A DNA stretch of 32,000 nucleotides from Pseudomonas aeruginosa (GCF_001457615.1 NZ_LN831024.1:2010001-2042000); one strand, 5' to 3'. Numbered from the stretch's first letter, positions 1,692 through 26,195 are shown. Made by a program: numbers and translations. The notes: generated by a model from the sequence alone, not told the origin.

Positions 1692-1695
<4 letters not shown>
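658..1695 (-). CDS. AraC/XylS-family transcriptional regulator (345 aa)
   Basis: C-terminal double HTH (…IAARLKLPTWTLRRKLAEEGTQFRSILNDTRRDLA…IAYLLGFASAEAFQRAFKRWSGQTPGEFRR) and an N-terminal AraC-type effector domain. Start MSAPRVRLGDL chosen because its ATG overlaps the upstream stop (ATGA at 1692-1695). The longer track ORF to 1794 would overlap the upstream gene. Confidence 0.85.
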
Positions 1696-5064
<3,369 letters not shown>

Positions 5065-11592: not shown

Positions 11593-11639
11593 GCGAGGGG
11601 CTGCGGCAGCTTCGATGTGCGCCGCCGGCCCCGGCCCGG

Positions 11640-11645
11640 TAGAAT
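11640..11645 (+). promoter_or_regulatory. Possible -10 element (TAGAAT) for the YeaC-like/DUF2797/pepN unit
   Basis: TAGAAT lies 31-36 nt upstream of the ATG at 11676; no convincing -35 was found. Confidence 0.2.
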
Positions 11646-11675
11646 GGCCGGTACGCCTTTTCACCGGAGCCGGCC

Positions 11676-11939
11676 ATGTCGTCCTTCAATCAAGCGATCG
11701 AGAACATCACTCCTGAGATCTACCAGAACCTCAAGCTGGCCATCGAGATCGGCAAGTGGCCGGACGGCCGCAAGCTGACCCAGGAGCAGAAGGAACTCTG
11801 CCTGCAGGCGGTGATCGCCTGGGAGCTGCAGAACCTCCCCGAGGAGGAGCGCACCGGCTACATGGGCCCGCAGCACTGCTCCTCGCATTCCGACGAGCCG
11901 ATCCCGAACATCCTGTTCAAGTCGGACTCCGTGCACTGA
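11676..11939 (+). CDS. YeaC-like DUF1315 small protein (87 aa)
   Basis: Recognisable …YQNLKLAIEIGKWPDGRKLTQEQKELCLQAVIAWE…; GGAG RBS. Confidence 0.8.
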   Translation: MSSFNQAIENITPEIYQNLKLAIEIGKWPDGRKLTQEQKELCLQAVIAWELQNLPEEERTGYMGPQHCSSHSDEPIPNILFKSDSVH

Positions 11940-12772
11940 TGGAAGAAATCGCCCGCGGCGCGCTGAGCAAGATGACGGCGCGCCTGGAAAGCAATGCTCC
12001 CGTGCAATACGCCTTCCGCCTCGACGACCGCGAAGTCGCGGTGAACCCGCTGATCGGCCGGCCGCTGCGCCTGGAGTACCTCGGCAGCATCTTCTGCACC
12101 CATTGCGGCCGCAAGACGAAGAAGAGTTTCAGCCAGGGCTATTGCTATCCCTGCTTCACCCGGCTGGCGCAGTGCGACAGTTGCATCGTCAGCCCGGAGA
12201 AGTGCCACTACGAGCAGGGCACCTGCCGCGAACCGGAGTGGGGCGAGCGGTTCTGCATGACCGATCACGTGGTGTACCTGGCCAACTCCTCCGGGGTAAA
12301 GGTCGGCATCACCCGCGCCAGCCAGATTCCCACCCGCTGGATCGACCAGGGCGCGCGCCAGGCGCTGCCGATCCTGCGCGTGGCCACCCGCCAGCAGTCC
12401 GGCCTGGTGGAAGACCTGCTGCGCAGCCAGGTCGCCGACCGCACCAATTGGCGGGCCATGCTCAAGGGCGAAGCCGAGCCGGTCGATCTGGCGGCAGTCC
12501 GCGAGCAGTTGTTCGACCAGTGCGCCGACGGCCTGCGCGAATTGCAGCAACGTTTCGGCCTGCAGGCGATCCAACCGGTTATCGACCTCGATCCGCTCGA
12601 GATCGCCTACCCGGTCGAGGCCTACCCGAGCAAGGTCGCCAGCCTCGACCTGGAAAAAACGCCTATCGTCGAAGGCACGCTTCGCGGTATCAAGGGCCAG
12701 TACCTGATCCTCAATACCGGGGTGATCAACATTCGCAAATACACGGCCTACCAGATCGCCGTGCATCACTGA
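11939..12772 (+). CDS. DUF2797-family protein with an N-terminal multi-Cys (zinc-ribbon-like) region (277 aa)
   Basis: CTHCGRKTKKSFSQGYCYPCFTRLAQCDSCIVSPEKCHYEQGTC cluster followed by VYLANSSGVKVGITR. ATG overlaps the upstream stop (TGATG). Confidence 0.8.
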   Translation: MEEIARGALSKMTARLESNAPVQYAFRLDDREVAVNPLIGRPLRLEYLGSIFCTHCGRKTKKSFSQGYCYPCFTRLAQCDSCIVSPEKCHYEQGTCREPEWGERFCMTDHVVYLANSSGVKVGITRASQIPTRWIDQGARQALPILRVATRQQSGLVEDLLRSQVADRTNWRAMLKGEAEPVDLAAVREQLFDQCADGLRELQQRFGLQAIQPVIDLDPLEIAYPVEAYPSKVASLDLEKTPIVEGTLRGIKGQYLILNTGVINIRKYTAYQIAVHH

Positions 12773-12790
12773 GCAGAAGGGCCACAAGCC

Positions 12791-15448
12791 ATGCGCACCG
12801 AGCAACCGAAAGTCATCCACCTCAAGGACTATCAGGCGCCGGACTACCTGATCGACGAGACCCACCTGAAGTTCGAACTGTTCGAAGACCACAGCCTGGT
12901 ACACGCCGAGTTGAAGCTGCGGCGCAACCCCGAGCGCGGCGCCGGCCTGCCGCCGCTGTTGCTGCATGGCCAGCAACTGGAGCTGCTGGCGCTCGAACTG
13001 GACGGCCAGGCGCTCGGCGCGGACGACTACCAACTGGACGACGAGCAGCTCGGGGTGCAACCGCGGCAGGCCGAATTCGTCCTCAGGAGCACGGTGCGTA
13101 TCCATCCGGAGAGCAACACCGCGCTGGAAGGCCTGTACAAGTCCGGCAAGATGTTCTGCACCCAGTGCGAGGCCGAGGGTTTCCGCAAGATCACCTATTA
13201 CCTCGACCGTCCCGACGTGATGAGTCGCTTCACCACCACCGTCAGCGCCGAACAGCAGCGCTACCCGGTGCTGCTCTCCAACGGCAACCCGGTGGCCAGC
13301 GGTTCCGAAGGCAACGGCCGGCACTGGGCGACCTGGGAAGACCCGTTCAAGAAGCCGGCCTACCTGTTCGCCCTGGTTGCCGGCGACCTCTGGTGCGTCG
13401 AGGACAGCTTCCGCACCATGAGCCAGCGCGACGTGGCGCTGCGCATCTACGTCGAGCCGGAGAACATCGACAAGGTCCAGCACGCCATGGACAGCCTGAA
13501 GAAGTCGATGCGCTGGGACGAGGAGGTCTACGGCCGCGAGTACGACCTGGACATCTTCATGATCGTCGCGGTCAACGACTTCAACATGGGCGCGATGGAG
13601 AACAAGGGCCTCAACATCTTCAACTCCAGTTGCGTCCTGGCCCGCGCCGAAACCGCCACCGACGCCGCCCACCAGCGGGTCGAGGGCGTGGTGGCGCATG
13701 AGTATTTCCACAACTGGTCGGGTAACCGGGTCACCTGCCGCGACTGGTTCCAGCTGTCGCTCAAGGAGGGCTTCACCGTATTCCGCGACTCGGAGTTCTC
13801 CGCCGACATGAACTCGCGCACGGTCAAGCGCGTCGAGGACGTCGCCTTCCTGCGCACCAACCAGTTCGCCGAGGACGCCGGGCCGATGGCGCATCCGGTG
13901 CGCCCCGACTCGTTCATCGAGATTTCCAACTTCTACACCCTGACCGTCTACGAGAAGGGCTCGGAAGTGGTGCGGATGATCCACACCCTGCTCGGCGCCG
14001 AAGGCTTCCGCAAGGGCTCGGACCTGTACTTCCAGCGCCACGACGGCCAGGCGGTGACCTGCGACGATTTCGTCAAGGCCATGGAAGACGCCAATGGCGT
14101 CGACCTGACCCAGTTCAAGCGCTGGTACAGCCAGTCCGGCACTCCGCGCCTGGCGGTGGAAGGCGAGTACGACGCCGCCGCCCGCCGCTACACCCTGACG
14201 GTGCGCCAGAGCTGCCCGCCGACTCCCGGCCAGCCGAGCAAGGAACCCTTCGTCATCCCGCTGGAGCTGGGTCTGCTCGACGGCCAGGGCCACGAACTTC
14301 CGCTGCGCCTGGAAGGCGAGGCCGTGGCCCAGGGCGGCAACCGCGTGCTGGCGGTGACCGAGGCCGAGCAGCGCTTCGTCTTCGTCGAGGTGCCGGAGCA
14401 GCCGCTGCCATCGCTGCTGCGCGGCTTCTCCGCGCCGGTGAAACTGAGCTTCCCCTACAGCCGCGACCAGTTGCTGTTCCTCATGCAGCACGACAGCGAC
14501 GGCTTCAACCGCTGGGAGGCCGGCCAACAGCTTTCGGTGCAGGTCCTGCAGGAGCTGATCGGCCAGCACCAGCGCGGCGAGCAACTGGTACTCGACCCGC
14601 GCCTGATCGAGGCCTACCGCACCCTCCTGGCGGATGAGGCGCTGGACCAGGCGATGGTCGCCGAGATGCTCTCGCTGCCCAGCGAGGCCTATCTCACCGA
14701 GATCAGCGAAGTCGCCGATGTCGACGCGATCCATGCCGCCCGCGAATTCGCCCGCCAGCGTATCGGCGAAGCGCTGTTCGAGCCGCTGTGGCAGCGTTAC
14801 CAGGCCAACCGCAAGATTTCCCGCGACACCGCCTACCTCGCCGAGGCCTCGCACATAGCCCGGCGCAGCCTGCAGAACATCGCGCTGTCCTACCTGTCGC
14901 TGTCGGGCCGGGAGGAAATCCTCGCCGCCTGCCTGGAGCAGTACGAAGGCTGCGACAACATGACCGAGCGCCTGACCGCCCTGGCGGTGCTGGTCAACTC
15001 CGGCTTCGAGGCGGAGAAGGGCAAGGCCCTGGCCATGTTCGCCGATTACTTCAAGGATGACCCGCTGGTGATGGACCAGTGGTTCAGCGTGCAGGCCGGC
15101 TCGCCGCTGCCGGGCGGGCTGGAGCGGGTCCAGGCGCTGATGCAGCACCCGGCCTTCACCCTGAAGAACCCGAACAAGGTGCGCGCGCTGATCGGCGCGT
15201 TCGCCAACCAGAACCTGGTCAACTTCCATCGTCCTGACGGCGCCGGCTATCGCTTCCTCGCCGACCAGGTGATCGTGCTCAACGCACTCAACCCGCAGAT
15301 CGCCTCGCGCCTGCTGGTGCCGCTGACCCGCTGGCGCAAGTACGACGAGGCGCGGCAGGCGCTGATGCGCGGCGAGCTGGAACGCATCCTGGCCTCCGGC
15401 GAATTGTCCAGCGACGTCTACGAAGTGGTGAGCAAGAGCCTGGCCTGA
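12791..15448 (+). CDS. pepN: Aminopeptidase N (M1 family, 885 aa)
   Basis: GAMEN exopeptidase motif, HEYFHNWSGNRVTCRDWFQLSLKEG zinc site (HEXXH-18-E), length typical of bacterial PepN. Confidence 0.95.
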   Translation: MRTEQPKVIHLKDYQAPDYLIDETHLKFELFEDHSLVHAELKLRRNPERGAGLPPLLLHGQQLELLALELDGQALGADDYQLDDEQLGVQPRQAEFVLRSTVRIHPESNTALEGLYKSGKMFCTQCEAEGFRKITYYLDRPDVMSRFTTTVSAEQQRYPVLLSNGNPVASGSEGNGRHWATWEDPFKKPAYLFALVAGDLWCVEDSFRTMSQRDVALRIYVEPENIDKVQHAMDSLKKSMRWDEEVYGREYDLDIFMIVAVNDFNMGAMENKGLNIFNSSCVLARAETATDAAHQRVEGVVAHEYFHNWSGNRVTCRDWFQLSLKEGFTVFRDSEFSADMNSRTVKRVEDVAFLRTNQFAEDAGPMAHPVRPDSFIEISNFYTLTVYEKGSEVVRMIHTLLGAEGFRKGSDLYFQRHDGQAVTCDDFVKAMEDANGVDLTQFKRWYSQSGTPRLAVEGEYDAAARRYTLTVRQSCPPTPGQPSKEPFVIPLELGLLDGQGHELPLRLEGEAVAQGGNRVLAVTEAEQRFVFVEVPEQPLPSLLRGFSAPVKLSFPYSRDQLLFLMQHDSDGFNRWEAGQQLSVQVLQELIGQHQRGEQLVLDPRLIEAYRTLLADEALDQAMVAEMLSLPSEAYLTEISEVADVDAIHAAREFARQRIGEALFEPLWQRYQANRKISRDTAYLAEASHIARRSLQNIALSYLSLSGREEILAACLEQYEGCDNMTERLTALAVLVNSGFEAEKGKALAMFADYFKDDPLVMDQWFSVQAGSPLPGGLERVQALMQHPAFTLKNPNKVRALIGAFANQNLVNFHRPDGAGYRFLADQVIVLNALNPQIASRLLVPLTRWRKYDEARQALMRGELERILASGELSSDVYEVVSKSLA

Positions 15449-15562
15449 TCCGCCAGCTTCGCCCGGAAGAGGGTGTTACTGGCCACTGGCTGGTAACGCC
15501 CTTTGTTACTTCTGGGAATCGCTTCACTGTTTTCCATTGATGGAGTCCGCTTAATCGTGTTT

Positions 15563-15633
15563 CGCGAACCTCCCTGCGCAGGCTCTGCGAAGGGACTTTT
15601 CGCGCCACCGGCGAAATTCGCCTGGCGCGTTTT
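15563..15633 (+). terminator. Two overlapping GC-rich stem-loops with short T tracts downstream of pepN
   Basis: SL1: TCCCTGCGCAG-GCT-CTGCGAAGGGA (15571-15595, one mismatch), extended by CGCGAA/TTCGCG (15563-68 / 15599-604). SL2: CGCGCCA-CC-GGCGAA-A-TTCGCC-TGGCGCG (15601-15629) followed by TTTT. SL1 and SL2 share 15601-15604. Confidence 0.35.
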
Positions 15634-15636
15634 GTC

Positions 15637-15698
15637 GGACACTTCCTGTTTTCTGGTCAGTGAATGAACAGTCATCCCGCAGGAAGTCCTGTTTTTTT
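15637..15698 (+). terminator. Long-loop hairpin followed by a T7 run (terminator-like)
   Basis: GGACACTTCCTG (15637-48) pairs with CAGGAAGTCC (15680-89) with one bulged A, followed by TG then TTTTTTT (15692-98). Confidence 0.45.
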
Positions 15699-15735
15699 CG
15701 CAATCCATTGAATTGCCTGGAGGATTCCGTTGAAT

Positions 15736-15751
15736 TGGCATCCCGGTTGCA
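15736..15751 (+). promoter_or_regulatory. Putative sigma54 (RpoN) -24/-12 promoter: TGGCAT-N5-TTGCA
   Basis: GG at 15737-38 and GC at 15749-50 with exact GG-N10-GC spacing; 10 of 11 conserved positions match TGGCAC-N5-TTGCW. Lies about 145 nt upstream of the DUF1302 ATG. Confidence 0.5.
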
Positions 15752-15894
15752 CTGCCTCGTCGCGCGGTTCCCTTTCGTCGATGCTAGGCCGGTGACGCCG
15801 CGACCACCCATAACAAGGCCGCAGAGAAACGGCCGAACGGCGAACCGCCCGCAGTGGCGGCGCCCAACGCATGACCACATGGAGTGAGTTCCCG

Positions 15895-17859
15895 ATGTAC
15901 ATCCCCAACCGCCAGCCCCGGCTGCGCTCCGCGCCGGCCCGGGCCGGCTTCGCCTTCGCCGGGCTGCTGCCGCTGCTGGGCGGCCAGGCCCAGGCCGTCG
16001 AATTCAGCTTCCTCGACAACGAGGTGTCCGGTTCGCTCGACACCACCCTGTCCTACGGCACCCTGTGGCGGGTGCAGGGGCAGGACAAGAGCAACAACGA
16101 CATCAACACCAACGACGGCAACCGCAACTTCGATACCGGCCTGGTTTCCGAGGTCTACAAGATCACCTCGGACCTGGAGGCGACCTGGCGCAACTATGGC
16201 GTGTTCATCCGCGGCACGGCGTTCTATGACACCCAGATCATGGACAAGCGCAACGACTACTACAGCCACAACGATCCATCGCAGCCGAGCCAGAGCTATC
16301 CCCACGACGACCGTTTCACCAGCCAGACCCGCGACATCGCCGGGCACAAGGCGGAAATCCTCGACGCCTACGTCTACGGCAGCTGGGACATCGGCAACAT
16401 GCCGCTGAGCGCGCGCTTCGGCCGCCAGGTGTTCAACTGGGGCGAGGGCATCTTCTACCGTGGCGGGGTCAACACCACCAACCCGGTGGACGCCGCCAAG
16501 TACCGCCTGCCCGGTTCCGAGCTCAAGGAAGTGCTGATGCCGGTGGAAGCGCTGAGCTTCAACATCGGCCTGACCGACAACCTGTCGATGGAAACCTTCT
16601 ACCAGTGGAACTGGAAGGAAACCCGCCTCGACCCGGTCGGTACCTTCTTCTCCGAGACCGACCTGTTCGCCGACGGCGGCAACACCGGCTACAGCGACTT
16701 CACCGGCACCGCGCTGGACACCCCGGTGCCCGGCTTCGGCAACGTCATCGGCCTGTACCAGGCGCTGGGCAACAATCCGCTGCTCAGCGGCGCGCTGAAG
16801 AACACCGGCCTCTATGCCAACGGCGTGACCCCGGCCTACGGCAACGTGATGAAGGTGTCGTCCATCGGCAAGGACATCAACGCGCGCAACGACGGCCAGT
16901 TCGGCGTGGCCTTCCGCTACATCGCCGAGGAACTGAACAGCACCGAGTTCGGCTTCTACTTCGTCAACTACCACTCCAAGGAGCCGACCCTGTACGCCGA
17001 CATCGGCGACTATGCCGGGGCCGACCTGGCGGCGCTGGCCAACACCCTGCGGCCGATCGCCGGCAACCTCGCCGAAGCCCTGGCCAACGGCCTGGTGACC
17101 GCCGACGTGATGGGCAACATCAATGCCCGCCGCGAGTTCGCCGAAGACATCCGCATGTATGGCTTCAGCTTCAACACCACGGTGGGCGACGCCTCGGTGT
17201 TCGGCGAGCTGGCCTATCGGCCGAACCTGCCGATCGGCATCGCCGCCACCAACGACCTGATCGGCGACCTCGCCCACGGTGCGGCGGAAGCCGCCAACGG
17301 CGGACAGATCAACGTCGGCGGGCAGATGGTCGGCCTCGGCGGGCAGATCCACAACTACGAGCGGGTCGAGGCGTTCAACACCTCCCTCGGGACCATCTAC
17401 AACTTCGGCCCGTCGCTGAGCTTCGACTCGTTGACCGGCGTCGCCGAGCTGGCCTCGGAACACCTGCGTGGCAGCAGCCTGAAGTACACCGCCTACGACG
17501 GCAGCACCCGCTACTATGCCGGGCGCGGCAACAGCTCGTACGTTTCCGGTGGCGACCGTGGCGACCAGGTGAACCGCAACGCCTACGGCTACACCCTGCT
17601 GCTCAGCGGCACCTGGAACGACGTGTTCGCCGGGGTCAACGTGTCGCCCTACGTGGTCTACAAGGACGACTTCGAAGGCAACTCCTACCAGACCGGCAAC
17701 TTCATCGAAGGTCGCAAGGCCTACACCCTGGGGATCAAGGCCACCTACCTGAACAGCCTGGAAGGCGAACTGCAGTACACCGAGTTCTACGGCGGCGGGC
17801 AGAACAACAACATCCGCGACCGCGACAACATCGGCCTGACCGTGAAGTACTCCTTCTGA
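15895..17859 (+). CDS. DUF1302-family predicted outer-membrane beta-barrel protein (654 aa)
   Basis: Signal peptide …AGLLPLLGGQAQA/VEF, alternating-pattern sequence rich in G/Y/N/T, C-terminal …GLTVKYSF (terminal aromatic typical of OMPs). GGAG RBS favours ATG 15895 over 15871. Confidence 0.85.
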   Translation: MYIPNRQPRLRSAPARAGFAFAGLLPLLGGQAQAVEFSFLDNEVSGSLDTTLSYGTLWRVQGQDKSNNDINTNDGNRNFDTGLVSEVYKITSDLEATWRNYGVFIRGTAFYDTQIMDKRNDYYSHNDPSQPSQSYPHDDRFTSQTRDIAGHKAEILDAYVYGSWDIGNMPLSARFGRQVFNWGEGIFYRGGVNTTNPVDAAKYRLPGSELKEVLMPVEALSFNIGLTDNLSMETFYQWNWKETRLDPVGTFFSETDLFADGGNTGYSDFTGTALDTPVPGFGNVIGLYQALGNNPLLSGALKNTGLYANGVTPAYGNVMKVSSIGKDINARNDGQFGVAFRYIAEELNSTEFGFYFVNYHSKEPTLYADIGDYAGADLAALANTLRPIAGNLAEALANGLVTADVMGNINARREFAEDIRMYGFSFNTTVGDASVFGELAYRPNLPIGIAATNDLIGDLAHGAAEAANGGQINVGGQMVGLGGQIHNYERVEAFNTSLGTIYNFGPSLSFDSLTGVAELASEHLRGSSLKYTAYDGSTRYYAGRGNSSYVSGGDRGDQVNRNAYGYTLLLSGTWNDVFAGVNVSPYVVYKDDFEGNSYQTGNFIEGRKAYTLGIKATYLNSLEGELQYTEFYGGGQNNNIRDRDNIGLTVKYSF

Positions 17860-17917
17860 CCGAACCGATAACGACACGGGCGCCGCGAGCGCCCGGCACC
17901 TCACACGGAGAACCCTC

Positions 17918-19285
17918 ATGTTGAACAAGCACCTGCTGATCGGCGCTTCCCTGGCGCTGGCACTGGGCAGCGGCGGCGCGCTGGCCGGCGTTTCCGCCGG
18001 CGAGGCGGCGCAACTGAAGTCGAGCCTCACCCCGCTGGGCGCGGAGAAGGCCGGCAACGCCGCCGGCAGCATTCCCGCCTGGACCGGCGGCATCACCCAG
18101 GCGCCGGCCGGCTACAAGCCGGGCCAGCACCACCCGGATCCGTTCGCCGCGGACAAGCCGCTGTTCACCATCGACAAGGCCAACCTGGAGCAGTACAGGG
18201 AACACCTGACCCCGGGCCAGCTGGCGCTGTTCAAGACCTACCCGGACAGCTTCCGGATGCCGGTCTACCCCAGCCGCCGTTCCGGCTCGGCGCCGCAGTG
18301 GCTGTACGACAACACCTTCGCCAATGCCACCAGCGCCAGGCTGCTGGACGGCGGCAACGGGTTCGCCGACGCCTATGGCGGGGTGCCGTTCCCGATTCCG
18401 AAGAGCGGCGTGGAGGCGCTGTGGAACCACGTCGCCCGCTACCGCGGCACCTATGTCGTGCGCCGCGCTTCGGAAGTCGCGGTACAGCGCAACGGTAGCT
18501 ATTCGCTGGTGACCTCGCAGCAGGAAGCGCTGTTCAAGTACTACCTCAAGGGCGGCAGCTTCGCCGACCTGAACAACCTGATGTTCTACTACCTGTCGTT
18601 CACCAAGAGCCCGGCGCGCCTGGCCGGCGGCGCGGTGCTGGTGCACGAGACCCTCGACCAGGTCAAGGAGCCGCGCCAGGCCTGGGGCTACAACGCCGGC
18701 CAGCGCCGTGTGCGGCGTGCGCCGAACCTTGCCTACGACACGCCGATCGCCGCCGCCGACGGCCTGCGCACCGCCGACGACACCGACATGTTCAACGGCG
18801 CGCCGGACCGCTATGACTGGAAGCTGCTGGGCAAGAAGGAAATCTACATTCCCTACAACAACTACAAGGTCAGCAGCCCCGAGGTGAAGTACGAGGAACT
18901 GCTCAAGCCGGGCCACCTCGATCCGCAATACACCCGCTACGAGCTGCACCGCGTGTGGGTGGTGGAAGGTACCCTGAAGCCGGGCGCGCGGCATATCTAC
19001 TCCAAGCGCACCCTGTACCTCGACGAGGACAGCTGGAGCGCGGCGGTGGTTGACCAGTACGACGGTCGCGGCGAACTGTGGCGGGTGTCGATGGCCTACC
19101 TGAAGAACTTCTACGACCTGCCGTACACCTGGAGCGCGCTGGACGTGTTTCACGACTTGCAGGCGCGTCGCTACCACGTGCAGAACCTGGACAACGAGGA
19201 GCCGGGTACCATCGACTTCACCCAGGCGATACCGGACGACTCCTACTTCAAGCCCTCGGCCCTGCGCCGCCGCGGCACCCGCTGA
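17918..19285 (+). CDS. DUF1329-family periplasmic protein (455 aa)
   Basis: Sec signal peptide MLNKHLLIGASLALALGSGGALA/GV with no lipobox Cys. Family recognised from …FPIPKSGVEALWNH…YRG… and …YELHRVWVVEG… blocks. GGAGA RBS. Confidence 0.85.
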   Translation: MLNKHLLIGASLALALGSGGALAGVSAGEAAQLKSSLTPLGAEKAGNAAGSIPAWTGGITQAPAGYKPGQHHPDPFAADKPLFTIDKANLEQYREHLTPGQLALFKTYPDSFRMPVYPSRRSGSAPQWLYDNTFANATSARLLDGGNGFADAYGGVPFPIPKSGVEALWNHVARYRGTYVVRRASEVAVQRNGSYSLVTSQQEALFKYYLKGGSFADLNNLMFYYLSFTKSPARLAGGAVLVHETLDQVKEPRQAWGYNAGQRRVRRAPNLAYDTPIAAADGLRTADDTDMFNGAPDRYDWKLLGKKEIYIPYNNYKVSSPEVKYEELLKPGHLDPQYTRYELHRVWVVEGTLKPGARHIYSKRTLYLDEDSWSAAVVDQYDGRGELWRVSMAYLKNFYDLPYTWSALDVFHDLQARRYHVQNLDNEEPGTIDFTQAIPDDSYFKPSALRRRGTR

Positions 19286-19391
19286 TCGCTCCGCTCGCCG
19301 GCGCCGACCGCTTCCCTCCGGGGAGGAGGGCGGCGCCGATCCCCCCGTTACAGACGGCTTACACGCTTAACAAAAGATAACGTGGCTTCAA

Positions 19392-19421
19392 TTGTCTCCG
19401 TCGCCAAACGCTGGCTATATA
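19392..19421 (+). promoter_or_regulatory. Possible internal sigma70-type promoter (TTGTCT-N18-TATATA) in an AT-rich spacer
   Basis: Pattern match inside the 180-nt AT-rich gap between the DUF1329 gene and the propeller gene. Confidence 0.3.
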
Positions 19422-19465
19422 ACGCTCACCACGAACCACTAATAACAACAACGGGGACGGTATCC

Positions 19466-20563
19466 ATGCGTGAGCCCATGACGTGGCGCACTTCGCCCGG
19501 CCAAACCGCGGACGCTTCGCGGCATCCGGCCATTCCTTCCAGATCGCCCCTGGCCAGCAGGGCCCTGTCGTTTCTCGGGGCACTTTCTCTTCTGACCTTC
19601 GCCGCCACCCCGGTCCTGGCCGAGTCGACGCCAACCGCCGCGCCGCCGCAATTCGCCGTGGAATCGCCGAAGGCCGCCAGCAGCCTGCTGCTCAGCGTCG
19701 CCCATGCCGGCAAGCGGCTGGTCGCGGTCGGCGACCGTGGGCATATCCTGCTCTCCGACGACGACGGCAAGACCTGGACCCAGGCCAAGGTGCCGACCCG
19801 CCAGTTGCTCACCTCGGTGTTCTTCGTCAACGAGCGCAAGGGCTGGGCGGTCGGGCACGATGCGCAGATCCTCGTCAGCGACGACGCCGGCAGCACCTGG
19901 ACCAGGCAGTTCGAGGACCTCGGCCGCGAAGCGCCGTTGCTGGACATCTGGTTCGCCGACGAACAGCACGGCCTGGCCGTCGGTGCCTATGGCGCGCTGC
20001 TGGAGACCCGCGACGGCGGCCAGCACTGGGAAGACGTCAGCGAGCGCCTGGACAACGAGGACCAGTTCCACCTCAACGCCATCGCCGCGGTCAAGGACAA
20101 CGGCCTGCTGGTGGTCGGCGAAGCCGGCAGCCTGTTCCGCTCGAAGGACTGGGGCGCCACCTGGGAAAAACTCGAAGGCCCCTACGAGGGCTCGCTGTTC
20201 GGCGCCATCGGTACCGCCGATGCGGGCGGCGTGCTGGTCTACGGCCTGCGCGGCCACCTGTTCCGCTCCGCCGATTTCGGCGACAGCTGGGAAGAGATAC
20301 CGCTGAAGGCGGCGTCCGGCGACCTGGAATTCGGTCTCTCCGACGGCGCGCTGCTGGCGGACGGGCGTATCGTCGTGGTCGGCCACGGCGGCAGTGTCCT
20401 CGAAAGCACCGACGGCGGGCGCAGCTTCAGCGTGTTCAACCGTCCCGACCGGCTGTCCCTGGCCGGCGTCAGCGCCACCGGCGACGGCCACCTGATCCTG
20501 GTCGGCCAGGGCGGCGTGCACCTCGCTGCGGCGAACGGTGCCGCGCTCGAACAACAACAATAA
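19466..20563 (+). CDS. Exported Asp-box (BNR) beta-propeller protein, Ycf48 / photosystem-II-assembly-factor-like (365 aa)
   Basis: Six spaced Asp-box-like repeats: SDDDGKTWT, SDDAGSTWT, TRDGGQHWE, SKDWGATWE, SADFGDSWE, STDGGRSFS. Hydrophobic signal segment LSFLGALSLLTFAATPVLA/ES. Start uncertain (19466 or 19478); the track start at 19382 lies in AT-rich, non-coding-looking sequence. Confidence 0.82.
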   Translation: MREPMTWRTSPGQTADASRHPAIPSRSPLASRALSFLGALSLLTFAATPVLAESTPTAAPPQFAVESPKAASSLLLSVAHAGKRLVAVGDRGHILLSDDDGKTWTQAKVPTRQLLTSVFFVNERKGWAVGHDAQILVSDDAGSTWTRQFEDLGREAPLLDIWFADEQHGLAVGAYGALLETRDGGQHWEDVSERLDNEDQFHLNAIAAVKDNGLLVVGEAGSLFRSKDWGATWEKLEGPYEGSLFGAIGTADAGGVLVYGLRGHLFRSADFGDSWEEIPLKAASGDLEFGLSDGALLADGRIVVVGHGGSVLESTDGGRSFSVFNRPDRLSLAGVSATGDGHLILVGQGGVHLAAANGAALEQQQ

Positions 20564-20575
20564 GGCGGGGGTCGC

Positions 20576-22957
20576 ATGAGTGCCATGAACCAGCATCAGC
20601 AAAACAAGGCGAGCCTGCTCGAACGCCTGATCTTCAACAACCGGCCGGTGGTGATCTTCCTCTGCCTGCTGGTCAGCGTCTTCCTGTTCTACCAGGCCAC
20701 CCAGGTGCGGCCGTCCACCAGCTTCGAGAAGATGATCCCGCTGGAGCACCCGTTCATCCAGAAAATGCTCGAGCACCGCAACGACCTGGCCAACCTCGGC
20801 AACACCGTGCGCATCTCGGTGGAGGCGGTGAACGGCGACATCTTCACCAAGGAGTACATGGAGACGCTCCGGCAGATCCATGACGAGGTGTTCTACATCC
20901 CCGGCGTCGACCGTTCCGGCCTGAAGTCGTTGTGGAGCCCCAGCGTGCGCTGGACCGAAGTGACCGAGGAAGGCTTCGCCGGCGGCGAGGTGATCCCGCA
21001 GACCTACGACGGTTCGCCGCGGGCGCTGGAGGAACTGCGCAACAACGTGCTCAAGTCCGGGCAGATCGGCCGCCTGGTGGCGAACAACTTCAAGTCGAGC
21101 ATCGTCGACGTACCGCTGCTGGAGATGTACCCGAACCCGAAGAACCAGAGCGAACTGATCAAGCTCGACTACCGCCAGTTCTCCCATGAGCTGGAAGAGA
21201 AGATCCGCGACAAGTACCAGTTGCAGAATCCCAACGTGAAGGTGCACATCGTCGGCTTCGCGAAGAAGGTCGGCGACCTGATCGACGGGCTGGTGATGGT
21301 GGTCGGCTTCTTCGGTATCTGCCTGCTGATCACCCTGGTCCTGCTGTACTGGTTCACCAAGTGCATCCGCAGCACCATCGCCGTGCTGATCACCACCCTG
21401 GTCGCGGTGCTCTGGCAGCTCGGCCTGCTCAACCTGGTCGGTTTCGGCCTCGATCCCTATTCGATGCTGGTGCCGTTCCTGATCTTCGCCATCGGTATTT
21501 CCCACGGCGTGCAGAAGATCAATGGCATCGCCTTGCAGTCCAGCGGCGCCGACAATGCGCTGATGGCGGCGCGGCTGACCTTCCGCCAACTGTTCCTGCC
21601 GGGGATGATCGCGATCCTCGCCGACGCCGTCGGCTTCATCACCCTGCTGGTGATCGACATCGGGGTGATCCGCGAGCTGGCCATCGGCGCCTCGATCGGC
21701 GTGGCGGTGATCGTCTTCACCAACCTGATCCTGCTGCCCGTGGCGATCTCCTACATCGGCATCAGCAAGAAGGCGGTGCAGCGCAGCAAGGATGACGCGG
21801 TGCGCGAGCACCCGTTCTGGCGCCTGCTGTCGAACTTCGCCAGCCCGAAGGTGGCCCCGGTGTCCATCGCCATCGCCCTGCTGATGCTCGGCGGCGGCCT
21901 CTGGTATGGCAAGCACCTGAAGATCGGCGACCTCGACCAGGGTGCGCCGGAACTGCGTCCCGACTCGCGCTACAACCTCGACAACGACTTCATCATCCGC
22001 AACTACTCGACCAGTTCGGACGTGCTGGTGGTGATGGTCAAGACCTCCCCGGAAGGCTGCTCCACCCACCAGGCCCTGGCGGCCATGGACGAACTGGCCT
22101 GGAAGCTGGAGAACACCGAGGGCGTGCAGTCGGCGATCTCGATGGTCACCGTGTCCAAGCAGGTGATCAAGGGGATGAACGAAGGCAACCTGAAATGGGA
22201 GACCCTGTCGCGCAACCAGGACGTGCTGAACAACTCCATCGCCCGTGCCGACGGTCTCTACAACACCGACTGCTCGCTGGCGCCGCTGCTGGTCTTCCTC
22301 AACGACCACAAGGCCGAGACCCTCGACCGCGCGGTGGCGGCGGTGCAGGCCTTCGCCGCGGAGAACGACAAGGACGACCTGCAGTTCCAGCTGGCCGCCG
22401 GCAACGCCGGGATCGAGGCCGCCACCAACGAGGTGATCAAGCAGTCCGAACTGATCATCCTGGTTCTGGTGTACATCTGCGTGGCGGCCATGTGCATGAT
22501 CACCTTCCGTTCCTTCGCCGCGACCCTCTGCATCGTCCTGCCGCTGATCCTCACCTCGGTGCTGGGCAACGCGCTGATGGCGGCGCTGGGCATCGGCGTG
22601 AAGGTCGCGACCCTGCCGGTGATCGCCCTCGGCGTCGGCATCGGGGTGGACTACGGGATCTACATCTACACCCGCCTGGAGTCTTTCCTGCGCATGGGCC
22701 TGCCGTTGCAGGAGGCCTACTACGAGACCCTCCGCTCCACCGGCAAGGCGGTGCTGTTCACCGGCCTGTGCCTGGCGATCGGCGTGGCCACCTGGATCTT
22801 CTCGGCGATCAAGTTCCAGGCCGACATGGGCCTGATGCTGACCTTCATGCTGCTCTGGAACATGTTCGGCGCCCTCTGGCTGCTGCCGGCCCTGGCGCGT
22901 TTCCTGATCAACCCGGCCAAGCTGCAGGCCAGGAAGGCCTCGCTGTTCGCTCACTGA
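20576..22957 (+). CDS. RND-superfamily transporter, MMPL/HpnN-like (793 aa)
   Basis: Two hydrophobic multi-helix bundles, each preceded by a large soluble loop; N-terminal …RPVVIFLCLLVSVFLFY… helix. No adjacent membrane-fusion or TolC-type gene. Confidence 0.9.
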   Translation: MSAMNQHQQNKASLLERLIFNNRPVVIFLCLLVSVFLFYQATQVRPSTSFEKMIPLEHPFIQKMLEHRNDLANLGNTVRISVEAVNGDIFTKEYMETLRQIHDEVFYIPGVDRSGLKSLWSPSVRWTEVTEEGFAGGEVIPQTYDGSPRALEELRNNVLKSGQIGRLVANNFKSSIVDVPLLEMYPNPKNQSELIKLDYRQFSHELEEKIRDKYQLQNPNVKVHIVGFAKKVGDLIDGLVMVVGFFGICLLITLVLLYWFTKCIRSTIAVLITTLVAVLWQLGLLNLVGFGLDPYSMLVPFLIFAIGISHGVQKINGIALQSSGADNALMAARLTFRQLFLPGMIAILADAVGFITLLVIDIGVIRELAIGASIGVAVIVFTNLILLPVAISYIGISKKAVQRSKDDAVREHPFWRLLSNFASPKVAPVSIAIALLMLGGGLWYGKHLKIGDLDQGAPELRPDSRYNLDNDFIIRNYSTSSDVLVVMVKTSPEGCSTHQALAAMDELAWKLENTEGVQSAISMVTVSKQVIKGMNEGNLKWETLSRNQDVLNNSIARADGLYNTDCSLAPLLVFLNDHKAETLDRAVAAVQAFAAENDKDDLQFQLAAGNAGIEAATNEVIKQSELIILVLVYICVAAMCMITFRSFAATLCIVLPLILTSVLGNALMAALGIGVKVATLPVIALGVGIGVDYGIYIYTRLESFLRMGLPLQEAYYETLRSTGKAVLFTGLCLAIGVATWIFSAIKFQADMGLMLTFMLLWNMFGALWLLPALARFLINPAKLQARKASLFAH

Positions 22958-22978
22958 GTCGCACCGAGCCTCGCCAAG

Positions 22979-23004
22979 ACCGCGGCCCCGGCCGCGGTTT
23001 TTTT
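22979..23004. terminator. Rho-independent terminator between the convergent RND and cprS genes
   Basis: ACCGCGGCC/GGCCGCGGT inverted repeat followed by T7 on the + strand; on the - strand the tail is only TCTTGG. Confidence 0.8.
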
Positions 23005-23028
23005 CGCGCGGAGGAAGGCCGCCGCGCT

Positions 23029-24324
23029 TCAGTCCGGTGTGGCGGGGAACAGCAGCTCGCAGCGGAAGCGCTGCTCGTCGCTGCTGTAATGCAGGCGCCA
23101 GCCGCTCTTCTGGCACAGGCGCTGGACCAGGTCGAGGCCCAGGCCATAACCGAACGCCATCGACTCCTCCGTGCCCTGGGCCGCACCGATGGGGTTGCTG
23201 ATCAGCAGGCTGCGGTCGCGCACGACGATTTCCACCACGCCCTCGTCGCTGTACTGCAGGGCGTTGCGCAGCAGGTTGCCGATGATGATCCGTGCGCGGG
23301 TCTGCGGCAGGCTGTGTGGCTCCACGTCGAGGTGGAAGGTCAGGCCGCGGCGCTGGCTCAGCGCCTGCTGTTCCTCGAGCAGCTCCTCCAGCAGGCGACC
23401 GACCTCGATGTGTCCGTCGTCGCGCAGTTCGCCGCTCTCGCGGCTGAGCCAGAGCAGGGTTTCGGTCATCTGCTGCATGCCCAGCGCCGAGCGGCGGATG
23501 CGTTGCAAGGCATGCGGGGAGGGCGCGCGGCCGGGTTGGTCGAGCAGCTCCAGGTTCATGCCGATCACCGCCAGCGGGGTGCGCAGCTCATGGCTGGCGT
23601 AGCGCAGGAAGCGCTCCTCGCGCTGGCTGAAGTCCTTGATCCGGGTCACGCTGTTCCACAGGGTATCCGCCAGCACGTTGAGTTCGCGGTAGTTGAAGCG
23701 CGGCCGCTGGCTGTCCGGGGCGAGGTCGTCGAGGGTCATCGACCAGCGCGTCAGCTTGCGCAACGGCGCGACGATGAACCAGACCAGCAGGCCGACGGCG
23801 GCCAGCGAAGGCAGGGTGACCGATAGGGTGACGATCCAGGTCTGCCTGACGCGGGCGTCGATGATGGCGTCGGACAGCGGCGTGTCGATGCTGCCGGCGG
23901 CGTCGTTGTCGTAGAGGTAGAGCGTCTTGCCGTCGGCCAGTGGCTGGCGGACCACCACGTAGGCATCGTCGCTGGGCGCGTCGTCATCCTCCTCTTCGTC
24001 ATCGTCGTCCCAGTTGCCGAGCAGTTGCATGGCGCCGATGCTCTTGTAGGGCGGGGTGTCGAGCATCTCCCTGAGTTTCGGCGGCAGCCCCGCGGTGCCG
24101 ACGCTGCCCTTGAAGTAGTAGCTGTCCGGCGCCGGCGTAGCCGGGTCTTCCTGGTAGCGCTGGGCGAAGTACAGCCCTTCCTCTTCCATCATCATGCTGA
24201 GCAGGTAGAGGGCGCCGGTCTCGCCGTAGTCGCCGAGCATGCGCGTGTAGACCAGCAACACCCCGGCGAGGATCAGGGTGACGCCGCCGCCGACGATGGG
24301 GATCAGGCTCAGGCCGCGTTTCAT
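23029..24324 (-). CDS. cprS: Two-component sensor histidine kinase (431 aa), CprS-like
   Basis: Two TM segments flanking a periplasmic loop with the acidic run NWDDDDEEEDDDAPSDD. H-box ASHELRTPLAV, ATP-lid GYGLGLDLV. ATG overlaps the cprR stop (ATGA at 24321-24324). Gene name rests on remembered synteny with PAO1. Confidence 0.85.
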   Translation of the reverse strand: MKRGLSLIPIVGGGVTLILAGVLLVYTRMLGDYGETGALYLLSMMMEEEGLYFAQRYQEDPATPAPDSYYFKGSVGTAGLPPKLREMLDTPPYKSIGAMQLLGNWDDDDEEEDDDAPSDDAYVVVRQPLADGKTLYLYDNDAAGSIDTPLSDAIIDARVRQTWIVTLSVTLPSLAAVGLLVWFIVAPLRKLTRWSMTLDDLAPDSQRPRFNYRELNVLADTLWNSVTRIKDFSQREERFLRYASHELRTPLAVIGMNLELLDQPGRAPSPHALQRIRRSALGMQQMTETLLWLSRESGELRDDGHIEVGRLLEELLEEQQALSQRRGLTFHLDVEPHSLPQTRARIIIGNLLRNALQYSDEGVVEIVVRDRSLLISNPIGAAQGTEESMAFGYGLGLDLVQRLCQKSGWRLHYSSDEQRFRCELLFPATPD

Positions 24325-24992
24325 TTGCGCTCCAGCTGGAAGCCGACGCTGTGCAGGGTATGGATCAGAGGGGTGGCGAACCCCTTGTCGACGGTGCTGC
24401 GCAGGTGGTGCATGTGCACGTTGAGGGTGTTGCTTTCCGGCGGTTCGTCGCCCCAGACGCTGCGCCCCAGCTGCTCGCGGGTGACCAGCGCGGGGCTGGC
24501 GCGCATCAGGCACTCAAGGATCTTCCAGGCGGTGGGGGACAGCGCCAGGGGCGTGCCGCCGCGGCTGGCCTGGCGGCTGTCGAGGTCCATCACCAGGTCG
24601 TCGACCTGCAGGCGCTGGGCCTGGCCGCTGCGGCGCCGGCTGAGGGCTTGCAGGCGGACCAGCAGCTCCGGCAGTTCGAAGGGCTTGAGCAGGTAGTCGT
24701 CGGCGCCGGCGTCGAAGCCGTCGAGCTTGTCCTGCAGGGTATCCAGGGCGGTGAGCATGAGTACCGGGGTCTGCAGGCCGGCTTCGCGTAGCTGGCGACA
24801 GACCTGCCGGCCGTTGATGCGCGGCAGCATGATGTCCAGCAGGATCACGTCGTAGCGGTTGGCGCGCGCCAGGTTGAGGCCGGCCTGGCCGTCGCGGGCG
24901 TGATCGCAGACCACCCCGGCGGCCTCGAGGTAGTCGATGACGGTGCCGGCGAGATCGAAGTTGTCTTCGACGACGAGTACGTGGATATGCAT
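24321..24992 (-). CDS. cprR: OmpR/PhoB-family response regulator (223 aa; alternative start at 25007 gives 228 aa), CprR-like
   Basis: Receiver domain MHIHVLVVEDNFDLAG…VILLDIMLP…LMLTA, winged-helix C-terminus …LSPTAWKILECL…VHMHHLRSTVDKGF…IHTLHSVGFQL. Neither start has a good RBS. Confidence 0.85.
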   Translation of the reverse strand: MHIHVLVVEDNFDLAGTVIDYLEAAGVVCDHARDGQAGLNLARANRYDVILLDIMLPRINGRQVCRQLREAGLQTPVLMLTALDTLQDKLDGFDAGADDYLLKPFELPELLVRLQALSRRRSGQAQRLQVDDLVMDLDSRQASRGGTPLALSPTAWKILECLMRASPALVTREQLGRSVWGDEPPESNTLNVHMHHLRSTVDKGFATPLIHTLHSVGFQLERK

Positions 24993-25053
24993 GGTATCTG
25001 TTCGCATGACGGATGGGACGCTGTGCCTGGTTCGCCGCGGGCGTTGCCCGCGC

Positions 25054-26142
25054 CTACTTGAGCACCTTGATCGGCTTCACCGGGGTGCCGTCGCTCCACT
25101 GGCCCATGCCGGTCTGCTCCGGCGTAGCGCCCAGGGCGTACTGGCGGTTGCGGTTGTAGAACGCCGCGTCGGTGAGGCCATCGAACAGCTTCCAGGTGCC
25201 GTACCAGTCGAGGGCGTCGATCACCAGCGGGTCGTGGCCGGTATAGCGGCCTTCGGCCTGCTGCACTTCGAGGCGCTTCTCGACGCGGTCGAGCAACCAG
25301 TCGCTGTCTTCTTCCTTCGGATACTGCGGGCCGAATACCGGCGCGGTGGGCGCCGCGTGGTTGGCCAACAGCGGCGGAGCGCCGTGGCGATCGCTGCGCA
25401 GCAACAGCAGGTTCTTGTCGCTGGGCGGAATGTGCCGGCTCTGGCGGTAGATGCGCTTGGCGTCGGTGCAGGCCACGTGGCTGTCCTCGTCGCCGCAGAC
25501 CGCCAGCAGCAGGGTGCCCTTGGCCAGCCCCGACAGGCGTTCCTGGGCCACGCCGTCCCAGCGCTTGCCCTGGCTCTTGCCGGGCTCGACCACCATCAGC
25601 GCCTTCGCCGCCGGCAGCTTCAGGCGTTCGCTGGCGGCCGCCAGGTTGGCGGCGAGCAGTCCGCCGGCGGAGTGGCCGAGGTAGGCGACCTGGTTCAGCC
25701 GCGGGCGCACCCCCAGCTCGCCGGCCTGCAGGCGCCTGAGGGCGTCGCCGAGGGCGCCGGCGGCATTGTCGAGGAAGTCTGCGTTGGGCGTCTTCAGGTC
25801 CGGCTGGTAGCGCGGGTAGACCACCACCATGCCGCGGCGGACGATATGGTCGATCCAGGCGCGGTAGAGGTCCGGCTGCATCACGCTCCAGCCGTGCAGG
25901 AAGATCACCAGCGGAGCGTTGCCGGGGACCGGTTGCTCGGGGGTGAACACCCAGTATTCGCGAGCGCCTTCGCCGAAGTGCCACTGATGCACGCTGGCAT
26001 GGCGATAGGCCGCGCCGCCCGGCCCTTCGGCCGGCTGCGTCGGCGGCGTGGGCGGCGTGGGCGCGGTCGGCGGTTCGGCGGCCGTCGCGGCGTGGCCCAG
26101 GAGCAGGCCGCACAGGACGAGGTACAGGGTACGGAAGCGCAT
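25054..26142 (-). CDS. Secreted alpha/beta-fold hydrolase (362 aa)
   Basis: Signal peptide MRFRTLYLVLCGLLLGHAATA/AE, Pro/Thr-rich linker PPTAPTPPTPPTQP, nucleophile elbow YLGHSAGG (G-x-S-x-G), AAGAGGG RBS. The 1095-aa track ORF is an artefactual upstream extension. Confidence 0.8.
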   Translation of the reverse strand: MRFRTLYLVLCGLLLGHAATAAEPPTAPTPPTPPTQPAEGPGGAAYRHASVHQWHFGEGAREYWVFTPEQPVPGNAPLVIFLHGWSVMQPDLYRAWIDHIVRRGMVVVYPRYQPDLKTPNADFLDNAAGALGDALRRLQAGELGVRPRLNQVAYLGHSAGGLLAANLAAASERLKLPAAKALMVVEPGKSQGKRWDGVAQERLSGLAKGTLLLAVCGDEDSHVACTDAKRIYRQSRHIPPSDKNLLLLRSDRHGAPPLLANHAAPTAPVFGPQYPKEEDSDWLLDRVEKRLEVQQAEGRYTGHDPLVIDALDWYGTWKLFDGLTDAAFYNRNRQYALGATPEQTGMGQWSDGTPVKPIKVLK

Positions 26143-26195
26143 GCGGGCCCTCTTGCGGAATCGGAATGTCGTGCCAGTCCTAACCATAGCGCCGT

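Follow-up and report, generated by a model that had tools for sequence, protein, structure and literature searches.

PA3082-PA3079 of Pseudomonas aeruginosa, a two-module cassette of the AmeABCD type and a proposed envelope shuttle for hydrophobic molecules

A 32-kb window of the Pseudomonas aeruginosa chromosome (NZ_LN831024.1, positions 2010001 to 2042000; coordinates below count from its first nucleotide) carries four consecutive plus-strand genes, PA3082 to PA3079, that make up a cassette of two modules. One is an inseparable inner membrane pair, a beta-propeller and an RND (resistance-nodulation-division) transporter. The other is a movable, duplicable, and faster-evolving outer membrane pair, a beta-barrel and its periplasmic companion. 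To take the components in order, open reading frame 1 (ORF1; PA3082, "gbt"; 15895 to 17859) encodes a DUF1302 outer membrane beta-barrel of 654 amino acids (aa), ORF2 (PA3081; 17918 to 19285) a 455-aa DUF1329 protein that is soluble, periplasmic, and LolA-like, ORF3 (PA3080; 19466 to 20563) a 365-aa exported, Ycf48-like propeller of the BNR/Asp-box type, and ORF4 (PA3079; 20576 to 22957) a 793-aa RND transporter of the MMPL/HAE3 type with 12 transmembrane (TM) segments. The gaps between them are 58, 180, and 12 nucleotides (nt), as had been read from the sequence alone. ORF1 is identical to UniProt entry Q9HZC6 (gbt/PA3082), which identifies the quartet as PA3082-PA3079. All four proteins, as well as the product of the upstream aminopeptidase N gene (pepN), have exact matches to proteins on at least 1000 P. 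aeruginosa contigs.

The original prediction took the quartet for a single four-gene system that hands a hydrophobic cargo across the envelope. The quartet is real and the shuttle reading has gained support, but the genes are not one fixed unit, as the two modules are often encoded apart. Nor is the idea novel: the cassette and the shuttle hypothesis were published in 2016 to 2018 and in 2024, as a co-fitness cluster, as AmeABCD, and as a shuttle model, and the original prediction, though right, re-derives those hypotheses. What is new is the two-module rule with its counts, a conserved dual-promoter and Hfq/Crc-type architecture predicted in Pseudomonas, the structural placement of ORF4 among the lipid-type RND transporters, and the recognition that gbt is a misnomer.

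What had been learned about the cassette in other bacteria? Price et al. (2016/2018) found the four genes to be co-fit in Shewanella, Kangiella, P. fluorescens, and P. stutzeri, the last having them at two loci, and proposed that they export a cell wall component. Puentes-Cala and Harder (2018; PMC6394551) named the cassette of Castellaniella defragrans AmeABCD, a "tetrapartite RND transporter." Its deletion led to poor growth on unfunctionalized monoterpenes; oxygenated derivatives and acetate supported growth, and acetate rescued the mutant in the presence of up to 5 mM limonene (PMC6394551). [quoted passage not shown] A link between DUF1302/DUF1329 genes and growth on fatty esters or detergents, mentioned in the original prediction, is thereby borne out and extends to the BNR/RND pair. 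The four genes are co-fit even where they are split over two loci, as in P. stutzeri and P. putida, and the families in this co-fitness cluster, in Shewanella and Kangiella as in the three pseudomonads, are those of PA3082-PA3079. For P. putida, the Foldy paper (2024) put forward a shuttle-system model with two alternative complexes, and in its AlphaFold contact map PP_2018 and PP_2019 contact each other strongly, while the DUF1329 protein touches the RND transporter and the barrel more weakly. Finally, a cluster reading hypothetical protein-DUF1329-...-YCF48-MMPL is highly expressed in an anaerobic benzene degrader. No functional study of PA3079-PA3082 was found in the literature, nor was any published biochemical function that explains the four components, in line with the earlier statement that no mechanism had been defined.

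Two modules across 80 loci

How constant is the quartet from one species to another? A scan with an RND alignment, using one genome per species, gave 80 loci at 53 to 89% identity, which are the closest RND relatives and not a random sample. They come from Pseudomonas sensu lato, Marinobacter, Idiomarina, Limnobacter, Thalassolituus, and many metagenome-assembled genomes (MAGs). Loci were annotated with tblastn and iterated hidden Markov models (HMMs), and synteny was read from flanks of at most 10 kb, so that "absent" means locally absent.

The inner membrane pair never comes apart: wherever the upstream sequence extends to 1.3 kb or more, which is the case at 74 loci, a BNR gene lies directly 5' of the RND gene (74 of 74). 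The outer membrane genes are variably present, partial, rearranged, or absent. Among the 54 fully flanked loci, 30 have BNR and RND alone, 12 have all four genes, 11 have DUF1329 without DUF1302, and 1 has DUF1302 without DUF1329 (overall, DUF1329 is found within 10 kb in 23 and DUF1302 in 13). It is this difference between a constant pair and a variable one that defines the two modules.

Several gene orders recur. The order pepN-DUF1302-DUF1329-BNR-RND is found in P. aeruginosa, the nitroreducens group, and E. alcaliphila, pepN-BNR-RND in the putida group and stutzeri, and BNR-RND without pepN in several other Pseudomonas loci, for example, those of P. fluorescens and P. koreensis. PP_2018/PP_2019 probably correspond to the pepN-BNR-RND arrangement of the putida-group loci; P. 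putida and P. stutzeri encode the outer membrane module elsewhere, whereas P. aeruginosa has it adjacent. Marinobacter, Porticoccaceae, and Thalassolituus have pepN-DUF1329-BNR-RND with no space for a barrel gene, and in Idiomarina the DUF1329 gene is divergent. At nine Marinobacter-type loci (L044 to L049, L051, L053, and L061), neither DUF1302 nor any other outer membrane gene lies within 10 kb, so either the barrel is encoded elsewhere or the system runs without one. Two loci (L071 and L073) read BNR-RND-DUF1302-DUF1329, matching the accessory cassette of crude-oil P. aeruginosa, which adjoins an almA-like long-chain alkane monooxygenase gene.

All four genes are found together in Limnobacter, a betaproteobacterium, in Chromatiales and other gammaproteobacterial MAGs, and in Marinobacterium, so the quartet does co-occur beyond close relatives. 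The literature adds further occurrences in Castellaniella/Thauera, Shewanella, Kangiella, and a benzene degrader of the Desulfobacterota. Does anything else travel with these genes? All-against-all ORF clustering of the 80 loci gave no fifth conserved partner, Pfam searches of the neighbors at DUF1302-less loci gave no substitute outer membrane gene, and neither a membrane fusion adaptor nor a TolC-family channel turned up as a conserved neighbor across the 80 loci.

The proteins also differ in how fast they change. Identity to the nitroreducens group is 87% for RND, 84 to 85% for DUF1329, 74% for DUF1302, and 70% for BNR; identity to Limnobacter is 55%, 50%, 29%, and 31 to 33%, respectively. 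Over long range, DUF1302 falls to 29 to 34% identity, compared with 55 to 58% for RND. Across Pseudomonadaceae loci the RND protein is 74 to 89% identical, and that of P. aeruginosa is 82 to 84% identical to its counterparts at the putida-group pepN-BNR-RND loci.

The four proteins and the systems they resemble

ORF4 matches the Pfam family MMPL (PF03176; E value of 3e-31, 108.9 bits against a cutoff of 20.5), and its best NCBIfam match is the HAE3 model TIGR00921 (5e-42, 143.8 bits), below the curated cutoff of 351.9; we infer a lineage within HAE3. It has the 12-TM topology of an RND transporter, with TM1, a loop of ~195 aa, TM2 to TM6, TM7, a loop of ~185 aa, and TM8 to TM12 (1+5/1+5). At an E value of 1e-30 or lower, 766 clusters at 50% identity match it. 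An AlphaFold2 model from 50 diverse representatives (predicted local distance difference test [pLDDT] score of 93.4, predicted TM-score of 0.91) has a compact periplasmic domain. Among solved structures it lies closest to MmpL4/5, MmpL3, NPC1-family proteins, and HpnN (TM-scores of 0.66 to 0.75 at 11 to 16% identity), and the first AcrB-type (HAE1) pump appears at rank 50.

What MmpL3/4/5, HpnN, and NPC1/NPC1L1 share with ORF4 is the 12-TM fold, two periplasmic domains of ~190 aa, and an Asp-Tyr pair in a central TM segment, and these transporters too have accessory extracytoplasmic proteins in place of a membrane fusion protein (MFP) and TolC. The partners of ORF4, however, are unrelated to MmpS, AcpM, and NPC2. 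TM10 of ORF4, reading GVDYGIY, aligns with the Asp-Tyr proton-relay motif of MmpL proteins (GTDYGIF and GSDYNLL in MmpL4), while TM4 has Ser-His where MmpL proteins have Asp-Tyr. D692 and Y693 in TM10 and H310 and Q313 in TM4 are nearly invariant in 51 RND homologues. The conserved Asp-Tyr pair supports, but does not prove, proton coupling of ORF4.

More specific names for ORF4 do not hold. Family models score far below their cutoffs, namely, HpnN TIGR03480 (62.7 against 751.85), NF052374 (17.6 against 1100), and BstA NF045600 (22.3 against 1400), so that ORF4 reaches the equivalog cutoff of neither the HpnN hopanoid transporter nor the BstA sterol transporter; it is likewise far below the cutoff of the actII/MMPL family-specific model. 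Tripartite pumps of the HAE1 type, such as MexAB-OprM and AcrAB-TolC, have in common with the cassette the RND superfamily and the spanning of the envelope, but at 793 aa ORF4 is short compared with the ~1050 aa of HAE1 pumps. ACR_tran (PF00873) matches one half of it only, at 17.7 bits against a cutoff of 28, and a search of the main ORFs in the window turned up neither an HlyD-type adaptor nor a TolC/OprM-type gene. The claim that this is not a classical tripartite pump thus stands.

ORF3 belongs to PSII_BNR/Ycf48 (PF14870; 7e-27) and matches the Ycf48 structures 2xbg and 5ojr in the PDB (1e-20). The six Asp boxes expected of it, and with them the propeller, are there: the motif [ST]x[DN]xGxx[WFY] occurs at aa 97, 138, 181, 226, 268, and 314. 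A role like that of the photosystem II assembly factor Ycf48/HCF136 was considered and rejected, as ORF3 reaches 90.9 bits on NF010237, whose cutoff is 326, and the host is not photosynthetic; the fold alone is common to the two.

ORF1 is DUF1302 (PF06980) over its full length (5e-162, covering positions 26 to 662 of the ORF), carries a signal peptide at its N terminus, and ends in LTVKYSF, its terminal Phe being invariant in 12 homologues. The family, the signal peptide, and the KYSF terminus were all as foreseen. An alternative start, an ATG at 15871, has no Shine-Dalgarno sequence. DUF1302 is the sole Pfam match, no NCBIfam model matches, no methyltransferase, hydrolase, or other catalytic domain is seen, and sequence and profile searches found no relative of DUF1302 in the PDB. 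Others have modeled the family as an 18-strand barrel (ECLIPSE, 2026; Foldy). ECLIPSE also predicts a complex of a P. aeruginosa DUF1302 protein and DUF1329 with an interface predicted TM-score of 0.84 and states (August 2026) that DUF1302 is without a solved structure and without direct functional characterization in P. aeruginosa. In Delftia, DUF1302 has been identified in outer membrane fractions, and a DUF1302/DUF1329 pair in vesicles and nanopods. At least one further such pair has been described in P. aeruginosa, adjoining a fatty-acid coenzyme A (CoA) ligase and a LuxR regulator. UniProt names Q9HZC6 "glycine betaine transmethylase" (gbt, PA3082), a name that lacks support for a protein that is exported, is DUF1302 from end to end, and is without a catalytic domain. 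The misnomer persists in UniProt and in the literature and spreads into omics tables.

ORF2 covers the whole DUF1329 profile (PF07044; 6e-165), completing the placement of ORF1, ORF2, and ORF4 in the families predicted for them. It begins with a hydrophobic signal segment and has no Cys in its first ~60 residues, hence no lipobox, again as first read. The LolA-like fold named for DUF1329 in the original prediction agrees with its published assignment to the LolA superfamily. In the protein itself the likeness is weak: LolA_like (PF17131) scores 28.6 bits, below its cutoff of 30, and over aa 341 to 450 only. PF17131 is precomputed for all listed homologues. The ORF2 profile finds a marginal PDB match (E value of 0.021) to 9tp6, an "outer membrane lipoprotein-sorting protein." Many Arg, Asp, and His residues are invariant in DUF1329. 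An AlphaFold2 model from 22 orthologues at 81 to 85% identity reached a pLDDT of only 38.5 and was discarded.

Which known systems, then, does the whole cassette resemble? By family composition the closest is AmeABCD of C. defragrans (PMC6394551), which has the same four families in the same order, that is, DUF1302, DUF1329/LolA, a COG4447/Ycf48-like protein, and an HAE3 RND of ~790 aa, and which similarly has no MFP and no TolC-type gene. PA3082-PA3079 has the first three of these, including the signal peptide on DUF1302 and the Ycf48-like BNR gene directly 5' of RND, and its RND protein fits in length and topology, with a putative place in the AmeD lineage of HAE3; the likeness is one of families. 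The settings differ. AmeABCD is monoterpene induced and sits in a monoterpene catabolic island, whereas the P. aeruginosa copy occupies a conserved housekeeping locus beside pepN and, unlike AmeABCD, is apparently split into a sigma-54 and a sigma-70 unit (described below). The Lol pathway (LolCDE-LolA-LolB) and the Lpt and Mla shuttles share the concept of an energized inner membrane machine, a soluble LolA-fold carrier, and an outer membrane acceptor. In contrast to Lol, the proposed engine is an RND transporter driven by the proton motive force (PMF) in place of an ABC transporter, a large barrel takes the part of the lipoprotein acceptor, and the cargo is not known to consist of lipoproteins. 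No LolCDE-type ABC partner is encoded at the locus.

Predicted promoters and chromosomal surroundings

Promoters and motifs were assigned from sequence. They point to separate control of the two modules: the P. aeruginosa quartet very probably forms two transcription units, a prediction that follows from separate conserved promoters and an Hfq/Crc-type motif. The first unit would be a sigma-54, activator-dependent outer membrane module and the second a sigma-70 inner membrane module under catabolite control.

The region before ORF1 is ~390 nt long. It holds a predicted sigma-54 (RpoN) type promoter, TGGCATCCCGGTTGCA, at 15736 to 15751 on the plus strand, 5' of ORF1-ORF2. This is the sole match to TGGC-N7-TTGCW on either strand of the window. 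A like element lies 165 to 191 nt 5' of DUF1302 at five loci of other species (L002 to L005 and L037), and the pattern is absent 5' of all 76 BNR genes checked. About 100 nt 5' of the predicted sigma-54 start, the inverted repeat TGGTCA-N5-TGAACA (15654 to 15670, plus strand) is a plausible candidate for the upstream activator site; it is conserved in L005 and L037 and becomes a perfect TGGTCA-N5-TGACCA in L002.

Farther 5' lies the terminator hairpin of pepN (15468 to 15509, plus strand; hairpin at 15468 to 15504), for which the terminator scan gives a 17-bp stem and a T-run. Its stem reads TGTTAC-N13-GTAACG and is followed by a third TGTTAC, resembling a CbrB-type F1/R1 site. The sequence of the stem, and not its pairing alone, is kept in L002, L005, and L037 as a perfect or near-perfect TGTTAC-N12/13-GTAACA (perfect, with N12, in two relatives). 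The published CbrB consensus is TGTTAC-N12-14-GTAACA, and CbrB also activates lipase genes. CbrB sites have poor predictive value, however, and the palindrome lies ~250 nt 5' of the sigma-54 promoter, farther than in the dissected P. putida PP2810 promoter. For these two reasons the CbrB assignment is kept as a lead only. If it proved right, one element may be both terminator and enhancer site.

The inner membrane module has its own predicted sigma-70-type promoter (19367 to 19421, plus strand), which emerged from cross-species alignment alone; a generic sigma-70 scan of 15200 to 23400 found no promoter. It consists of the A-rich block TTAACAAAAGATAAC (19367 to 19381), a -35 element TTGTCT (19392 to 19397), an 18-nt spacer, and a -10 element TATATA (19416 to 19421). 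Of the 43 Pseudomonas-type loci with a BNR call, 41 carry the block, up to 3 mismatches allowed, 5' of the BNR gene (all loci together give 42 matches), and it is present with or without DUF1302/DUF1329 at the locus. It also settles 19466 as the start of ORF3. Immediately before the Shine-Dalgarno sequence of ORF3, AATAACAACAA (19441 to 19451, plus strand) comprises two overlapping AAnAAnAA motifs of the Hfq/Crc type. In Pseudomonas, AAnAAnAA is the motif that Hfq/Crc targets to repress translation. It lies 8 to 35 nt before an in-frame BNR ATG in 38 of 41 Pseudomonas-type loci, the expectation being 0.009 per 40 nt. Between the modules, after ORF2, a GC-rich hairpin without a T-run (CCCTCC-GGGGA-GGAGGG; 19314 to 19330, plus strand) takes the place where nitroreducens-group loci have a strong intrinsic terminator with a T-run.

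The predicted leader of ORF1, ~130 nt long (15762 to 15894), contains two hairpins conserved across species, GGCCG...CGGCC at ~15819 to 15836 and CCGCC...GGCGG at ~15846 to 15866. A search of 15400 to 23200, these hairpins included, found no match in Rfam.

As for the surrounding genes, the window reads rhomboid protease-DUF2797-pepN at 10732 to 15448, and the DUF2797-pepN pair is kept 5' of the RND module from Pseudomonas to Marinobacter and Thalassolituus (loci L044 to L053). This conservation points to an old, stable chromosomal neighborhood. On the other side, a histidine kinase and an OmpR-type response regulator on the minus strand (23029 to 25007) converge on the RND gene, the stops being 72 nt apart; by the PAO1 gene order the pair is CprS/CprR. 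A kinase of this kind is beside RND in none of the 80 other loci, so its adjacency is specific to P. aeruginosa. Long ORFs of 422 and 423 aa on opposite strands at 24845 to 26208 and a 515-aa plus-strand ORF at 5293 to 6840 have no Pfam match. Farther downstream, a Bat/MoxR-type cluster on the minus strand (BatD, VWA+TPR, VWA, and DUF58; 26196 to 31974) is unrelated to the cassette. Some 11 kb 5' of the cassette, 658 to 5064 holds genes for an AraC-family regulator, a CN-hydrolase, and a FadH-like 2,4-dienoyl-CoA reductase, an enzyme of unsaturated fatty acid beta-oxidation.

A periplasmic shuttle and its direction

How might the parts work together? PA3082-PA3079 would be the housekeeping chromosomal copy of an AmeABCD-type system in P. 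aeruginosa, built from the two modules. At the inner membrane, the Ycf48-like propeller would dock on a small MmpL/HpnN/NPC1-like RND transporter, PMF coupled through its intramembrane Asp-Tyr pair (D692/Y693, TM10) together with H310/Q313 (TM4). The periplasmic domain of this transporter falls short of the outer membrane, and with neither adaptor nor TolC a DUF1329 shuttle is the simplest bridge. DUF1329 would ferry a very hydrophobic small molecule over the periplasm, alternating between the barrel and the propeller/RND pair as docking sites. We hold a two-module shuttle architecture of this kind to be probable. The folds and families, the modular synteny, the conserved promoters, and the conserved Asp-Tyr pair come from the present analysis, and co-fitness, growth phenotypes, and predicted contacts from the literature, while shuttling, the class of cargo, its direction, and energy coupling are inferred. 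As to the direction of travel, an inward route carries about the weight of two export explanations combined. Along the inward route, the one that we adopt, molecules would pass from barrel to DUF1329 to propeller/RND to inner membrane, serving to acquire water-insoluble nutrients such as long-chain fatty esters. In form, this would be analogous to NPC2 passing cholesterol to NPC1, and its logic would be like that of TonB, with several outer membrane modules for one inner membrane engine. Shuttle and inward direction taken together make a tentative claim, a little short of an even chance.

Several observations favor the inward route. (i) The mutant defects are cell autonomous and specific to very insoluble substrates, not to their polar products (Thompson et al.; PMC6394551). 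(ii) The ester-growth defects arise in pooled cultures, where secreted goods are common to all. (iii) Paralogous cassettes lie in catabolic islands for nontoxic, insoluble substrates, for example, beside the almA-like gene; related cassettes have been associated with the degradation of phenanthrene, steroids, p-cresol, and benzene. (iv) The predicted sigma-54 and Hfq/Crc-type features are typical of nutrient acquisition genes in Pseudomonas. (v) The outer membrane parts are diversified and the inner membrane engine conserved, as in TonB systems and the reverse of drug efflux systems. (vi) The RND transporter has its fold in common with NPC1, to which a soluble carrier delivers sterol.

The points that weigh against uptake are serious as well. 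To our knowledge, all characterized bacterial RND transporters move their substrate outward, and the closest solved structures, MmpL3/4/5 and HpnN, are exporters. An RND transporter also makes better sense as a donor, because extracting a molecule from a membrane costs energy and inserting it does not. No cargo of the cassette has been reported, and the sigma-54, CbrB-like, and Hfq/Crc elements are so far computational predictions. The promoter of the inner membrane module looks constitutive, and the module is conserved at housekeeping level. In Shewanella and P. stutzeri the phenotypes are pleiotropic (Price et al.), and the ameABCD deletion mutant accumulates slightly more Nile Red and, even when acetate is supplied, tolerates limonene above 5 mM less well (PMC6394551).

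The last of these findings, more Nile Red and a lower tolerance of monoterpenes at high concentrations, speaks for an outward efflux or tolerance pump as suggested for AmeABCD, in which the RND transporter would load DUF1329 and the cargo would leave through the DUF1302 barrel. The export habit of the known bacterial RND transporters, the conserved PMF-coupling Asp-Tyr pair of ORF4, and the detergent nature of Tween 20 fit such a pump too. Yet butyl stearate, long-chain alkanes, and phenanthrene, all indicated by mutants or gene contexts, are poorly soluble and barely toxic, and acetate restores growth of the ameABCD mutant with 3 to 5 mM limonene (PMC6394551). Efflux systems, moreover, normally have their specificity and diversity in the inner membrane pump and a generic outer channel, the opposite of what this cassette has, and the predicted sigma-54 and Hfq/Crc-type control suits acquisition over defense. 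Efflux is a serious contender but, on balance, unlikely.

A second way to run the system outward is anterograde: as HpnN, MmpL3, or BstABC do, and in line with the cell wall component export of Price et al., it would send a lipid or amphiphile of the cell's own envelope to the outer membrane or surface. The exported lipid would indirectly condition the surface or vesicles for contact with hydrophobic substrates. This would account for pleiotropic phenotypes, for DUF1302/DUF1329 in outer membrane vesicles and nanopods, for an RND structure like that of lipid exporters, and for an inner membrane module with housekeeping conservation at a stable, pepN-linked locus from Pseudomonas to Marinobacter. 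It sits poorly with the lack of linked lipid biosynthesis genes in any of the 80 loci, with paralogous modules embedded in substrate-specific catabolic islands, with genes that are dispensable and defects that are condition specific, and with ORF4 scores far below the HpnN and BstA cutoffs, and we regard it as improbable. That ORF1 and ORF2 are instead enzymes, a fatty-ester esterase (Thompson et al.) or, for ORF1, the transmethylase of its database name, has in its favor the ester-specific defects of PP_0765/6 mutants in KT2440, where no esterase is known, the gbt label on Q9HZC6, and the invariant Arg, Asp, and His residues of DUF1329, but it is scarcely credible for an exported, end-to-end DUF1302 protein that ends in an aromatic beta-signal, that matches neither a methyltransferase nor a hydrolase domain, and whose family is found experimentally in outer membrane fractions and modeled as a barrel, the more so as the authors of the esterase idea later switched to a transport model (Foldy).

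To return to the inward shuttle, a more far-reaching version of it would make the cassette a bacterial importer that depends on an RND transporter, the first of its kind and a prokaryotic parallel to the NPC2-to-NPC1 relay. Its organization would be TonB-like, many receptors feeding one engine, and in Pseudomonas it would be under sigma-54 and Hfq/Crc carbon-catabolite control. Specialized modules of a barrel and a LolA-like protein would be present in several copies per genome, some of them on catabolic islands, and would take in water-insoluble nutrients such as fatty esters, long-chain alkanes, terpenes, and polycyclic aromatic hydrocarbons (PAHs), which a single conserved, PMF-coupled propeller/RND pair would release to the inner membrane. 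This is doubtful, and the pattern of many outer membrane modules and one engine is suggested by 10-kb flanks only.

Why do cargo and direction matter? The passage of very hydrophobic molecules through the lipopolysaccharide barrier and the aqueous periplasm is understood only in part; FadL-type channels account for the outer membrane step but not for the periplasmic one. The cassette is widespread and, in a major pathogen, strongly conserved; related pseudomonads need it to grow on fatty esters, and it recurs in islands for the degradation of terpenes, alkanes, PAHs, and benzene. For envelope biology it may represent a new class of lipid or hydrophobe shuttle. The answer would also bear on bioremediation and metabolic engineering, where uptake of oil, esters, and alkanes is at stake, and possibly on drug entry or tolerance in P. 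aeruginosa.

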